Of a DNA stretch of 64,000 nt, positions 3,528-8,404 are shown in pieces. The DNA lies in contig CAVTHS010000014.1 of NCBI GenBank assembly GCA_963734535.1, forward strand, positions 64,001-128,000, written 5' to 3'. The notes under the pieces are model-generated. The model did no database searches and was not told where the DNA came from. It saw only the letters and a list, made by a program, of their open reading frames with translations. The stretch comes from an uncultured Chloroflexia bacterium. GTDB taxonomy: Bacteria > Chloroflexota > Limnocylindria > Limnocylindrales > CSP1-4. Position numbers and translations under genes: made by a program. Every line of letters begins with the position of its first letter. Position 1 is the first letter of the stretch.

Positions 3528-4362
3528 ATGAGCTTCGTCCCCGGGATGGGCGTCCTCAAGGGCATGGCGCTCACGCTGCGGCGGTTCTTCGCGCCGAAGG
3601 TGACGATCCGGTACCCCGAGGTCACGCCCGACATCGCCGTCAAGTACCGCGGCAGGCTGCAGCTGCTGTACGACGAGCACGGTACGCTCAAGTGCGAGAC
3701 CTGCTTCCAGTGCGCCCAGGCCTGCCCGATCGAGTGCATCGACATGGGCGGCGTCGACACCAGGGGGCGCTACGCCGTCCACTGGGGCGCCTCCGAGACC
3801 TACGGCGAGCGGCGCGAGGAGGCGGCCCTCCGGCGCGCCGGCCGCGAGGTGCCGGACCCGACGTACGCCCGCTTCGAGGCCGTCGACACCGCCGCCGTCG
3901 ATCGCATCCTGGAGGATCACGACTACGACCCGCACCGGATGCTCTCGATCCTCGAGGCGATCCAGGCCGAGTTCGGCCGCCTCCCCGTCGCGGCGCTCAA
4001 GCAGGTCAGCTTCACCACCGGGTCGTGGTACGCGATGATCTACGGCACCGCGACCTACTACCGCCACTTCCGGTTCGAGAAGACGGTCGAGCAGGTGGCC
4101 GTCTGTCGCTGCACGGCCTGCCTGATGCAGGGCGGTGGGCGGCTGGCGGACGCGCTCGCTCGCCGGGCTCGGGACGGGGCTCGGGCGGATCACGCCGGAC
4201 GGCCGGATCCGGCTGGACTGGCTGCCCACCCACCCCGCCGGCGCGCCGGCGCCGCTCGTGACGCTCGACCGCGAGCCCCAGCCTGAGGTCACGCCTGCCA
4301 ACGCCGCCGCCTGGGCCCAGGCGCTCGTCGGGGAGCATCCCGCCACCCGGACGGTTCACTGA
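3528..4362 (+). CDS. Fusion of NuoI N-terminal half and a NuoE-like domain (probable frameshift near 4160)
   Basis: N-terminus KGMALTLRRFFAPKVTIRYPE...YRGRLQL...CETCFQCAQACP is the first half of NuoI. It continues into NuoE-like LSILEAIQAEFGRLP...ATYYRHF...VCRCTAC. The 4135..4362 frame supplies ITPDGRIRL...APLVTLD...VTP. Confidence 0.85.
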
Positions 4363-4366
4363 GCCG

Positions 4367-5732
4367 ATGACGACGATCCTCCCGACACCGGCGGCCTGGC
4401 CGCGACCGCTGCTCGGCGATTCGCCGAGCAGCGACCCGCCCTCGGGCGACGCGCGGCTCGCCGATCCCGCCGACCTGGACGCCGCGGTCCGCGCAGGCGC
4501 GTTCGCCGGGCTGACCCGCGCGCTCCGCGATCTGGGCGCCACGCTGACGACCGCGACGATCGCCGAGTCGGGCCTTCGCGGCCGAGGCGGCGCAGGCTTC
4601 CCGGCGGCCCAGAAGTGGCGCGCCGTCGCCGCGACGCCCGGGGCTCTGCGGTACGCCGTCGCGAACGGCTACGAGGCAGATCCGGCGGGGGCCACGAACC
4701 GCCACCTGATGACGCAGCGCCCGTACGCGATCGTCGAGGGCCTGGCGATCGCCGCGCTCTCGGTCGGCGCTGAGGAGGCCATCCTCGCCGTCCGGGCGGA
4801 GTACGCGGACGCGGTCACGGCCCTGGAGCTCGCGGTCTCCGCGGCCGAGGAGGCCGGGTACATCGGCGAAGACGTCCTGGGATCCGGGCGCGCGCTCCGG
4901 ATGACGGTCCATCCCGTGCAGGGTGCCTACCTGCTGGGCGAGGAGACGGTCCTCCTCAAGGCCCTCGAGGGGCGCCGGGGCCAGCCGGAGCAGCGCCCGC
5001 CCTACCCGTCGGAGCGCGGCCTCTGGGGCCGGCCGACCCTCGTCCACAACGTGGCAACGCTCGCGGCGATCCCCTGGATCGTCGTCCACGGCTCCGATGC
5101 CTACCGCGCCATCGGCGACCCGGACGCCCCGGGGACGGTCCTCGTCCAGGTGACGGGTGCCGTGCCATCACCTGGCATCGTCGAGGTCCCGACCGCGACG
5201 CCGCTCACCGAGATCGTTGGCCTGGCGGGCGGAGTGGCGGGCGGCCGCACGCTCAAGGCCCTCCTCGTCGGCGGGTCCCTCGGGCGGGCTCCTGCCGGCG
5301 GACCTCGTGACGACCCCGTACACGTTCGGGGCGCTCCGCGCGGTCGGCGCCCATGTCGGATCGGGTTCGGTGGTGGTGGCCGACGACCGGACGTGCGTGG
5401 TGGACCTGGCACGTCTCCTGACCCGCTACTGCGCGGACGAGGCATGCGGCAAGACGATCCCGTGCCGGATCGGGCTGCGCCGCCTGTCGGAGATCGGGGA
5501 GCGGATCGCGTCCGGCCTGGCCCGCCCGACCGATCCGGGGCTTCTTGCAGACCTCGGGGCGGACATCGTGGGGAGCGCGCTGTGCGACCACGAGCGGCTC
5601 GCAACAGGGCCGCTGGCGACCGCGATGCGATACTTCGGGCCCGAGATCGACGCCCACCGCTCGGGCGTCTGCCCAGCCGGCGTCTGCGCCCCCGCCGGGG
5701 TCGTGGCCGCCGGGACCGCGCACGGAGGATAG
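4367..5732 (+). CDS. NuoF/HydB-like flavoprotein subunit, divergent (probable extra G near 5274)
   Basis: SGLRGRGGAGFP, KW, YLLGEET, PPYPSERGLWGRPTLVHNVATL. After the frame change: GPSGGLLP, GSGSVVV, EACGKTIPCRIG, HRSGVCPAGVC. Confidence 0.88.
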
Positions 5733-5743
5733 GCACGACCGCG

Positions 5744-8404
5744 ATGGCCGACCTCATCTCCCGCCCAGCCGACCGCATCCCCGGCCCAGCGGACCTCGTC
5801 TCGACGACCCGACCCGAGCCGGTGGTCGACTCGCTGGCGGAGCGGCTCTTCCGCACGCAGTCGCCGCAGCGCCCGCAGTCCACGCCGGTCATCCGGCTCG
5901 AGGTCGACGGGCGCGCCGTCGAGGGCCGCGAGGGCCAGACGATCCTCGAGGTCTGCCGCGACAACGGGATCGAGGTCCCCACCCTGTGCTACGAGCCAAA
6001 GCTGCCGGGCTTCGGCGCCTGCCGCATGTGCGTGGTGGAGGTGGCGGGCGAGGAGCACCCGCCGATCTCGTGCTCGCGCCTGGCCGAGGCCGGGATGGTG
6101 GTCCAGACCCAGACAGAGGAGGTTCGCCGCCTGCGCCGGACCAACCTGGAGCTGATCTTCTCCGACCACAACGCGTACTGCCTGCCGCCCTGCCAGAACA
6201 AGTGCCCGAGCCACATCGACATCCCGGGGTTCCTCAAGGCGAACGCGGAGGGCGAGTTCCGCGAGTCGGCCCGGATCTTCAAGCGCACGATCCCGTTCCC
6301 CTCGATCCTGGGCCGGGTCTGCCCGGCGCCGTGCGAGGAGCACTGCCGGCGCGACGAGGTCGACGAGGCGATCGCGATCCGCGACAGCCACCGCTACGCG
6401 GGCGACCAGGTGATCCGCGCGATGCGCGAGCAGGACGTGGATCCGCCGCTCCCCTTCGAGCTGCAGCCGAAGTCCGGCAAGCGGGTGGCGGTGATCGGGT
6501 CCGGCCCGGCCGGCGCGTCCGCGGCCTACTACCTGCTGATCGCGGGCCACGACGTGACGATCTACGAGCGGGACGAGGCGCCCGGCGGCATGCTCCGTTA
6601 CGGCATCCCGGAGTACCGGCTCCCGAAGGAGAAGGTCCTCGATCCCGAGTACGAGAGCATCACGCGACTCGGCGGGCGCTTCGTCTGCAACCAGGCCCTT
6701 GGCCGCGACTTCAGCCTGGACGACCTCCAGAACCAGGGCTACGACGCCGTCATGGTGGCGATCGGCTGCTACGACACGAACAAGCTGGGGATCCCCGGCG
6801 AGGACGCCGACGGTGTCATCGACGGCCTGGAGTACCTCAAGATCGCCACGCTCGGCCTGACCTACCCGGGCCACGCCGGCACGCGGGTCGTGGTCATCGG
6901 CGGCGGCTTCACCTCGATGGACTGCTCGCGAACCTCGGTACGCCAGGGGGCGTCGGAGGTGACGCTCGTCTACCGCCGCGACATGAAGGACATGCCCGCC
7001 TCCGGCGAGGTCCACGAGGCCATCGAGGAAGGCGTCACGACGATCTTCCAGGCCGGCCCGACCCGCGTCATCGCGAACGAGGCGGGCAAGGTCACCGGTG
7101 TGGAGTTCATCCGGATGCAGCTGGGCGCCGCGGACGCCTCGGGCCGTCGTCGACCCGAGCCGGCCCCTGGCACCGAGTTCACGATCGAGTGCGACCGCGT
7201 CCTGCTCGCGATCGGGCAGGGCCCGGACCTGACCTGGATGGGTGGTGGCTCGGACGGCGTCGAGGCCACGAAGTACAAGCGCCTGCGGGCCGACGCGGTC
7301 ACCTTCCTGACCCCGCGGCCGGGCGTCTTCGGGACCGGCGACGTCCGCATGGGCGCCCAGACCGTCGTCCAGGCGATCGCCGACGGGCGCCGGGCCTCCT
7401 ACGCGGTGGACGCCTACCTGAAGGGAATGGACCTCGGCGAGATCCGGACCCGCCAGACGCTGGCGGAGCCACAGCCGGAGTTCCTTAGCATCGTCCCGTT
7501 CACGTCCGAGGTGAAAGCACCCCGCAACCGGCTGCGGACCATGCCTGCCGAGGAACGGCGCTCGAGCTACGTCGAGTACGAGATCCCGTACTCGCAGAGC
7601 GAGGCGGTGGCGGAGTCCACGCGCTGCCTGCAGTGCACCTGCGAGGCGATCGGCTTCTGCGACCTGCGCCGCCTGGGCATCGAGTACGGGACCACCCTCA
7701 AGACGCTGGAGCCGCAGAACAACGGCGGGGCCGGCTTCCGGAGCGTGACCGAGAACCGCTTCACCGGCTCCAACCACGACTACATCCGCGACGACAGCCA
7801 CGCCTTCATCCTCCGCGAGCCGTCGCGCTGCATCGACTGCGGCCGCTGCGCCAACGTCTGCGCCGAGGTCGTCGGGGCGGCCTGCTACGACTTCATGCGG
7901 ATCGGCTTCGACACCCTGGTGACCACGCCGCTCGACATGAGCCTCAACGACACGCCGTGCGTGTCGTGCGGGCGTTGCGCGGAGACGTGCCCCACCGGCG
8001 CGCTCATGCCGAAGCCGCGGATCCTCGAGAAGTACGACGTGGACGAGAGTCGCTGCATCCTGTGCGGCATCTGCGTCGACGCCTGCCCGTACGACGCGCT
8101 CCGCTGCGGCCCCGACTTCGAGCTGGCGCACGTGAGCCGCGAGGAGCCGATGATCGACCTCATCGCGATCGCGGCGGTCGATCGCGAGACGGAGATGACC
8201 TACGTTCGCCGCGAGCGCGACTGGCTGGAGCGGGCAGTCGCATCCGGCCGGGATGTCGGCGCCCGCCAGCTCCCGGTGCTCCCGGCCTCGCTCGCGGGCG
8301 GCGCGAACGGCAACGGCAGCGGTCGCGCGAGCGTCCCCGGCAACGGCCACAATGGGCACGGCCCGGCCGGCGGCGGCACCGCCGGGCACGCGCACAACCG
8401 GTAG
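5744..8404 (+). CDS. Multi-domain FAD/Fe-S oxidoreductase: NuoG-type 2Fe-2S + GltD/NfnB-like NADPH-FAD module + 2x[4Fe-4S] + C-terminal half of NuoI (886 aa)
   Basis: ATG 5744. Motifs in order: PTLC...GACRMCVVE...[63 protein letters not shown]...[54 protein letters not shown]...DFELA. Confidence 0.9.

Follow-up and report, generated by a model that had tools for sequence, protein, structure and literature searches.

NuoI (Nqo9, TYKY, NDUFS8) is an invariant core subunit of complex I (Nuo), one of the best-studied enzymes. In the NuoI fold, each of the two [4Fe-4S] clusters takes three cysteines from one motif and the fourth from the other. In this study, we analyzed the nuoI position of a complex I operon from an uncultured Chloroflexia bacterium of the Limnocylindria, contained in a 64,000-nucleotide stretch of contig CAVTHS010000014.1 (assembly GCA_963734535.1) that we call the window throughout. 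NuoI is encoded there on two polypeptides, and its two halves are separated by most of a three-gene module (genes A, B, and C) resembling the soluble Stn and Nfn-Bfu enzymes.

Several described systems come close to this arrangement. Nuo-Bfu is a predicted 14-subunit complex I (subunits A to N) in which BfuABC takes the place of NuoEFG, and it has been described in Deferribacteres, Proteobacteria, Planctomycetes, and Nitrospirae (Schut et al. 2022, PMC9304861). Our locus shares with it a complex I-like operon with a Bfu (HydABC-related) NADH module inside the nuo cluster, but it differs in placing the module within a split nuoI, in having a GltD NADPH domain on the BfuA-type subunit, and in its reduced BfuBC core. 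The soluble enzymes StnABC of S. ovata (8oh5) and Nfn-Bfu of T. sibiricus (9n5u, PMC12018979) consist of the same trio found here: a NuoE-like protein, a NuoF-like protein, and a protein with a [2Fe-2S] domain, a GltD-like part, and NuoG-type clusters, with which about 730 residues of gene C align. StnC contains the [2Fe-2S] domain, a GltD-like domain for NADPH and flavin adenine dinucleotide (FAD), the NuoG-type clusters, and, from residue 683 (683 to 1172), an FdhF-like part; this FdhF-like domain is inactive and stands on a cluster branch that has been called a non-functional remnant (PMC10482914). Unlike these soluble enzymes, our locus has the FdhF-like domain replaced by half of NuoI leading into a membrane complex, and the Limnocylindria version is without clusters C1 and B2 to B5. 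Finally, mbx-like operons of Thermotoga and proteobacteria have a gltD-related flavoprotein where the NuoI homolog would otherwise be (Degli Esposti 2015, PMC4758237). What they share with our locus is a GltD-type NAD(P)H flavoprotein at the NuoI position of a complex I-related membrane complex; by description, those complexes are of the Mbx/Mrp type rather than quinone-reducing Nuo, and their NuoI is substituted rather than split. We found no description of a split NuoI in the literature. NuoI is never mentioned in the main text of Schut et al. 2022 (PMC9304861), whose supplementary tables, outside our search, might list such clusters, and a split NuoI is not mentioned in the passages covered of Moparthi and Hägerhäll 2011 (PMC3144371). 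The layout is apparently undescribed, and it is a variant of complex I and of the Nuo-Bfu idea rather than a new kind of system.

NuoI is encoded in two halves

The two NuoI halves span the interval between nuoH, which ends at 3517, and nuoJ, which starts at 8431. The N-half starts at 3528 and gene C stops at 8404. The roughly 4.3 kb between the halves hold the remainder of gene A, all of gene B, and the greater part of gene C. Gene C is an open reading frame (ORF) of 886 amino acids (aa). The features are as follows, with selection given as the ratio of nonsynonymous to synonymous substitution rates (dN/dS).

3528..4362, + strand: gene A (NuoI N-half and NuoE-like domain)
3528..3761, + strand: gene A, NuoI N-half, with amphipathic N-terminus, YPE and YRGR stretches, and first CxxCxxCxxxCP motif
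3762..3872, + strand: gene A, linker from NuoI half to NuoE-like domain, with nearly invariant residues in the alignment and a median dN/dS of 0.23
3873..4362, + strand: gene A, NuoE-like domain, with the first Cys pair kept and the second absent; stop at 4360-4362 once an extra base is ignored
4367..5732, + strand: gene B (NuoF/BfuB-like)
5744..8404, + strand: gene C (StnC/NfnA-like part and NuoI C-half), the 886-aa ORF
5744..8008, + strand: gene C, StnC/NfnA-like part, from Pfam, NCBIfam, and PDB matches
8009..8173, + strand: gene C, NuoI C-half, with a strand before the motif, second CxxCxxCxxxCP motif, and PDFE stretch
8174..8404, + strand: gene C, C-terminal tail, with a charged stretch that is conserved, followed by a low-complexity end rich in Gly, Asn, and His, and the stop

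An initial annotation made from the sequence alone had proposed that gene A starts as NuoI with one cysteine motif and runs in frame into a NuoE-like domain, and profile searches bore this out. Residues 9 to 78 of gene A match positions 1 to 64 of the 121 positions of TIGR01971 (E 2.6e-13, 49.6 bits) and positions 13 to 82 of the 180 of PRK05888.1-1 (E 5.5e-15). The N-half also matches the solved NuoI chain 8e9g_I (residues 6 to 79, E 6.7e-11), and PF01257 finds the NuoE-like domain at residues 125 to 213 (E 2.7e-13). The NuoI part of gene A contains one CxxCxxCxxxCP motif only. The missing half had been placed at the C-terminus of the 886-aa flavoprotein before nuoJ, and window positions 8018 to 8155, at the end of gene C, indeed match TIGR01971 positions 71 to 116 (E 3.6e-15, 55.6 bits). 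By profile, this C-terminal motif is NuoI-like: NuoI models hold the three best NCBIfam ranks, above generic ferredoxins and hydrogenase-type relatives, and over 20 distinct solved NuoI/TYKY/NDUFS8 sequences match the segment in their second half (for example 8qby_I, 93 to 143, E 2.9e-13). On Paracoccus NuoI (8qby_I), the N-half covers residues 17 to 81 and the C-half 93 to 143, which puts the break in the inter-motif loop, as the initial annotation had it. All eight motif cysteines are kept, in 41 of 41 aligned sequences for the N-half and 35 of 35 for the C-half, and the proline of the N-half motif is as invariant as its four cysteines (41/41).

The genome to which the window belongs is a metagenome-assembled genome (MAG) of 14 contigs totalling 3.2 Mb, with a completeness of 90% and a contamination of 7%. 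A search of this genome for an intact nuoI found no match above the family cut-off; the sole other NuoI-like gene encodes a 145-aa two-cluster subunit adjoining the large subunit of a group-4 (Mbh/Ech-like) [NiFe]-hydrogenase. There is one complex I NuoD gene, and the operon is the genome's only complex I. A canonical NuoI is a single polypeptide of about 120 to 220 residues with two motifs; here both motifs are present, on two polypeptides. The position between nuoH and nuoJ, the N-terminal segment and first motif in gene A, and the second motif and PDFE-type segment in gene C are as in canonical NuoI, but the two halves are each fused to a module protein and neither exceeds the family cut-off alone. 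These results confirm that NuoI is split between its two cluster motifs, with each half fused to a different module protein.

Some variation surrounds the split site and the end of gene C. In family f4 of the class sample described below, the N-half match reaches model positions 72 to 77 and the C-half match starts at 71, and in family f3 the C-half starts at 69. The overlap of a few positions in f4 may reflect a short duplication where NuoI is split, or else slack in the alignment. The gene C tail has invariant residues up to about residue 840 of the ortholog P0008, and its Gly/Asn/His-rich part (window 8290 to 8401) differs in length between relatives.

Conservation of the layout and integrity of the assembly

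A layout of this kind could be an artefact of a chimeric assembly, or it could mark a decaying operon and hence a dead locus. The genome is, as noted, a MAG in 14 contigs with 7% contamination, and relative to the closest relative, L009, which served as the reference for the indel comparison, the window has two one-base insertions.

4159..4160, + strand: one-base insertion in gene A (about 4160), a frameshift; absent in L009 and in contigs of runs X1, X2, and X4
5272, + strand: one-base insertion in gene B, a frameshift; absent in L009 and in the X1 contig covering 4871-5950

Reading in three frames is consistent with single extra bases in genes A and B. Of the words sampled from the stretch, 80% occur in the public run X1, whose contigs differ from the window by 2 to 6 letters per kb. 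X1 may be the source sample; its contigs are a separate assembly, and parts of the stretch are without a listed bridging X1 contig. The X1 contig covering 3733 to 4866 has no extra base at 4159, and the X2 and X4 contigs are without a base at 4159-4162 and at 5275-5276. Because near-identical public contigs do not have the frameshifts, we read these as probable consensus errors, or at most as strain variants. The orthologs in L012 are intact, with 277 aa for gene A (P0006), 449 aa for gene B (P0007), and 879 aa for gene C (P0008). The fusion junctions, at about 3760-3870 and about 8009, are distant from both frameshifts, in keeping with the original proposal that the two are separate matters. 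Since at least two one-base consensus errors fall within 5 kb, caution is due over other apparent frameshifts in window positions 14400 to 64000. Compared with L009, the window also carries two in-frame insertions, one of 30 nt close to the gene B start (4428-4457) and one of 21 nt close to the gene C start (5771-5791); the N-termini of both proteins are variable and Pro/Ala/Asp-rich.

The same fusions were sought in related genomes and found in nearly all of them. We surveyed 40 relatives by their matches to the NuoI halves, with counts taken from the table rows. Both halves are present in 36, and 33 of these pairs lie on one contig, about 4.2 to 4.4 kb apart; one genome has the N-half only, one the C-half only, and two, which are 75% and 67% complete, have neither. 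None of the 41 genomes (the relatives and the window's own) has a whole NuoI. In a second family, with genomes of about 1.1 Mb, both halves occur in 15 of 16. We also fetched the best 80 of 540 relatives of gene C, which are 79 to 95% identical and belong to MAGs with the labels Chloroflexota, Candidatus Limnocylindrales, or uncultured Chloroflexia. In 73 of these loci the N-half precedes the C-half by 4181 to 4484 nt; the remaining 7 are truncated. The motif is kept in every N-half (73/73) and every C-half (80/80). Compared with the window, the median dN/dS is 0.24 for the N-half, 0.21 for the C-half, and 0.27 for nuoH, values which indicate that both halves are under purifying selection similar to that on nuoH. 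The two-cluster domain before the C-half has a median of 0.03 and the NuoE-like domain one of 0.47.

We then considered a broader class sample of 121 genomes, MAGs labelled Limnocylindrales, Chloroflexota, for which 150 of 254 matches were listed. Six of its genomes are flagged as unpublished (G102, G122, G126, G131, G140, and G146), and no claim is based on them alone. All 121 genomes match the NuoI model and 111 have at least two matches. In G110, one of four genomes that carry a whole NuoI, both half matches are also present among the matches listed.

The layout is also found outside this class. A search of the whole library returned distant full-length fusions, P0347, P0352, P0359, and P0392, with 25 to 27% identity to gene A. 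The metagenome contig L098, of the P0347 type, carries nuoB, C, D, and H, then a 253-aa fusion of the NuoI N-half with NuoE, a 646-aa BfuB-type protein, an 831-aa protein with [2Fe-2S], GltD, and iron-sulfur (Fe-S) domains, nuoJ/K, and nuoL. Its halves match NuoI model positions 2 to 66 and 69 to 115. The 646-aa protein has an N-terminal PF01257 part ([2Fe-2S] type) and a C-terminal dicluster (Fer4) domain. The 90% cluster of the 831-aa protein includes members that their submitters named Thermoleophilia bacterium MAGs; as Thermoleophilia-labelled MAGs share the layout, it crosses phylum labels. When P0347 was searched against 301 Chloroflexota genomes, the best 150 of 406 matches were mostly plain NuoE, and a NuoI half joined to NuoE appeared among them only in G075 and G062, both from the window's class; this search is no proof of absence elsewhere in the phylum.

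Given that 36 of 40 relatives, 73 of 80 fetched loci, and a distant second lineage share the layout, that dN/dS is 0.03 to 0.27 over the conserved parts, and that intact orthologs and public contigs free of the extra bases exist, an artefact or a dead locus is exceedingly improbable as an explanation, and we take the split nuoI to be a real feature of these genomes.

The split is missed in public annotations, where the name of gene A is "NAD(P)H-dependent oxidoreductase subunit E" and that of gene C is "FAD-dependent oxidoreductase." Pipelines will therefore record NuoI, NuoG, and a full complex I as absent from such genomes. Among JGI composite names, some fragments of gene C are called "NADH:ubiquinone oxidoreductase subunit I."

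The module and its proposed place in complex I

Gene B is NuoF/BfuB-like, with a site for flavin mononucleotide (FMN) and NADH, an SLBB domain, and an N3-type [4Fe-4S] cluster, and its frame is uninterrupted if the extra base at 5272 is disregarded. It matches StnB/HydB/NfnB chains with E values of 1e-97 to 1e-101 and NuoF more weakly (E 7e-82). Its ortholog P0007 has PF01512, PF10531 (SLBB), and PF10589 only; a Pfam search of P0007 found none of the extra BfuB cluster domains (B2 to B5). Gene C begins with a [2Fe-2S] domain (about 5888-6115), followed by a GltD-like part (about 6179-7387) that has two [4Fe-4S] clusters and sites for FAD and NADPH; next come a CxxCxCx5C motif and a 2x[4Fe-4S] domain of the HydA/NuoG type (about 7808-8005). 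All 16 cysteines of the four C-terminal motifs of gene C are kept in 35 of 35 sequences. Pfam assigns Fer2_4, Fer4_20, Pyr_redox_2, and Fer4_Nqo3, and PRK12814 is matched over positions 4 to 631 of 657. Residues 42 to 774 align to residues 3 to 699 of 9bov_A (E 1e-163), and gene C also matches the Stn complex chain 8oh5_C (E 9e-141) and NfnA, 9n5u_A (E 3e-139). The alignment to 9bov_A and 8oh5_C ends at their residues 699-700, and gene C goes on as the NuoI C-half. We found no C-terminal FdhF-like (molybdopterin-fold) domain in gene C, and its NuoI motif, motif 3, begins exactly where the first cysteine motif of the FdhF-like domain begins in the Stn-type protein. The NuoI half thus replaces that domain.

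These matches support the first proposal that the module is Stn/Nfn-Bfu-like, and we read it as derived from that family. A correction is needed: in this class the module is probably a reduced, non-bifurcating derivative. Among aligned gene A proteins, 37 of 41 are without the full second NuoE cysteine pair, and the full four cysteines are kept only in the distant P0347, P0352, P0359, and P0392. Gene A ORFs were measurable in 72 of the 80 fetched loci, of which 54 have 200 to 249 aa, 16 have at least 250 aa, and 2 are broken. These lengths replaced single high-scoring segment pairs from tblastn as the gauge of intactness, which were misleading because the NuoE-like C-terminus diverges. In G048 (genus g4), gene A covers only positions 2 to 63 of the 145 of the NuoE profile. 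These differences suggest a stepwise decay of the NuoE domain within the class. In most relatives (L023 to L088, and L179, which is G048:C1:74500-81500 with gene A at 1189-1839), gene A has about 216 to 245 aa and the cluster-binding half of NuoE is gone; the shortened remainder still joins the NuoI half to the module. Frames of 680 to 790 aa in the class sample had hinted at a fusion of genes A and B in some genera, a candidate that we rejected for G048, where gene A ends at 216 aa, gene B begins shortly afterwards, and what looked like a long frame is an out-of-frame high-GC stretch.

The family resemblance raises the alternative of a true confurcating Nuo-Bfu complex, which would pass electrons from NAD(P)H and reduced ferredoxin together to quinone. 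The module is homologous to the bifurcating Stn/Nfn-Bfu enzymes, and Nuo-Bfu complexes are predicted, in the work that described them, to confurcate NADH and ferredoxin to menaquinone (PMC9304861). The Thermoleophilia-labelled form, moreover, looks like a complete Bfu module by its domains, as it keeps the four NuoE cysteines and has the 646-aa BfuB-type protein with the N-terminal [2Fe-2S]-type and C-terminal dicluster domains. Bifurcation, however, is reported to need FMN together with clusters B1 and C1 at its site, C1 being the [2Fe-2S] cluster that the NuoE-like subunit binds through four cysteines, with ferredoxin reduced via B3 and B4 (PMC12018979). In 37 of 41 gene A proteins the C1 ligand set is incomplete, and in some the cluster domain is wholly gone. 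Gene B has no extra cluster domains, as is the case for non-bifurcating homologs without B2 to B5 (PMC9304861). With the loss of the NuoE-like [2Fe-2S] site and of the extra BfuB clusters, no bifurcation is expected in the class, and we consider confurcation unlikely here. A plain dual-input NAD(P)H:quinone oxidoreductase would be the expected form of the complex.

We propose that the N-half of gene A and the C-half of gene C pack in trans into a normal 2x[4Fe-4S] NuoI fold, which would place clusters N6a and N6b at the interface of two polypeptides. The fusions would tie the module covalently to the quinone arm on both sides, replacing the usual non-covalent docking of the N-module. Gene B would oxidize NADH at its FMN, and gene C would oxidize NADPH at the FAD in its GltD-like domain; both inputs would enter the NuoG/HydA-type Fe-S chain of gene C and pass through N6a/N6b and then N2 in NuoB to quinone, with proton pumping by NuoH, J, K, L, M, and N. 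The dead-end cluster branch of Stn would here lead to N6a/N6b, N2, and quinone. We consider it likely that NuoI is assembled in trans within a working complex I. For a real dual input of NADH and NADPH, the chances appear evenly balanced.

The alternative to trans assembly is that NuoI is not rebuilt at all: motif 3 of gene C would pair in cis with motif 2, and the N-terminus of gene A would be a remnant anchor, to the membrane or NuoH, or would pair with another motif. Motifs 2 and 3 are 21 residues apart, and a spacing of about 21 residues is typical of clostridial-type ferredoxins. The generic Pfam dicluster models Fer4_7 and Fer4_9 fit motifs 2 and 3 in cis (residues 1198 to 1244 of P0002). 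A prediction of the complex from gene A residues 1 to 115 and gene C residues 684 to 830, with separate alignments, scored 0.21 and 0.15 against a mark of 0.32; no model of the trans pair was obtained, a point open to the cis arrangement, and we count the scores neither for nor against trans assembly. Motifs 1 and 2, however, match the whole 2x[4Fe-4S] domain of HydA (7p5h_A) and of the Stn-type protein 9bov_A in a residue-level alignment. Their eight cysteines are thereby accounted for, and motif 3 is left without a partner in cis. The invariant four cysteines and proline of the N-half motif would be unexpected for a mere anchor. In addition, NuoI-specific models outrank generic ferredoxin models for both halves, and 117 of the 121 class-sample genomes have no other NuoI. 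We regard pairing in cis as very unlikely and favor the assembly of NuoI in trans.

Besides the cis fit of the generic dicluster models, several observations weigh against a trans-assembled, NADPH-fed complex I. Neither half reaches the curated TIGR01971 cut-off of 113.05 bits on its own (49.6 bits for the N-half and 55.6 for the C-half). Whole NuoI genes do exist in 4 of the 121 class-sample genomes (G061, G097, G100, and G110, with 142 to 144 bits), where they may belong to a second, canonical operon. Contigs from an RNA library (run X16) cover parts of the region at 90 to 95% likeness, which is too weak for a claim of expression. The use of NADPH is predicted from homology to GltD, NfnB, and StnC only.

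A broader picture can be drawn from the trans assembly of NuoI. The two polypeptides would form a heterodimeric NuoI ferredoxin fold; the complex would pump with NADPH and NADH as inputs or run in reverse, making NADPH from quinol and the proton-motive force; the Thermoleophilia-labelled form would be confurcating with ferredoxin; and the Limnocylindria form would be its simplified aerobic descendant. As a whole, this picture is tentative and somewhat doubtful. As for the direction of evolution, insertion of the cassette into nuoI is plausible. If the halves do reassemble, they would provide a natural two-cluster ferredoxin fold made of two polypeptides and an example of a soluble Stn/Nfn-type module grafted onto the quinone arm, in which the dead-end branch of Stn becomes a productive exit. 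A built-in NADPH site would alter models of respiratory electron input in an abundant soil and freshwater class and in the Thermoleophilia-labelled lineage.

The operon and related genes elsewhere in the genome

The complex I operon occupies the window from its start to about 14.3 kb on the + strand. Besides genes A, B, and C, it contains the following.

1..384, + strand: nuoB, 3' part, cut by the window start; PF01058 Oxidored_q6, E 1.2e-25
395..940, + strand: nuoC; PF00329, E 9.9e-40
955..2169, + strand: nuoD; PF00346, E 1.3e-83; ATG at 955
2180..3517, + strand: nuoH; PF00146, E 3.4e-103
8431..8964, + strand: nuoJ; PF00499, E 3.1e-32; GTG start preceded by a purine-rich stretch
8961..9272, + strand: nuoK; PF00420
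9295..11298, + strand: nuoL; PF00361, PF00662, PF01010
11305..12855, + strand: nuoM; PF00361
12873..14348, + strand: nuoN; PF00361

By Pfam, the core subunits NuoB, C, D, H, J, K, L, M, and N are present and intact, with the 3' part of nuoB inside the window and nuoA upstream of it. There is no nuoE, nuoF, or nuoG between nuoD, which ends at 2169, and nuoH, which starts at 2180. The DNA has about 70% G+C, and many long out-of-frame ORFs appear as a result. A 1345-aa ORF (4367-8404) and a 593-aa ORF (388-2169) are composites of such open frames; the latter exceeds nuoD only through an open upstream frame. The G+C content of the module is 0.73 to 0.76, compared with 0.66 to 0.68 for nuoH and nuoL. 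We set aside recent transfer as the reason for this difference and ascribe it to membrane-protein composition.

The NuoI-like gene outside the operon lies in L001 (G000:C2:244435-247689), where the two ORFs are as follows.

1354-1791, - strand: the 145-aa NuoI-like subunit
1793-2878, - strand: the group-4 hydrogenase large subunit, ending in DPCISCTER

Two other NuoF-like genes are present in the genome, both beside [NiFe]-hydrogenase genes, and the genome has no second N-module of complex I. L178 (G000:C6:254000-267000; open frame 4612-8016, then 7572-8735 and 8773-10803) has a HoxU/NuoG-N-like protein followed by a [NiFe]-hydrogenase large subunit. It may encode a soluble hydrogenase linked to NAD(P) whose diaphorase is a NuoF-GltD fusion, its gene limits being provisional in this high-GC DNA. 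L177 (G000:C2:23000-35000; 4962-7190 and 2289-4259, - strand), a second soluble hydrogenase cluster, has a HoxF-like NuoE-NuoF fusion beside another [NiFe]-hydrogenase large subunit.

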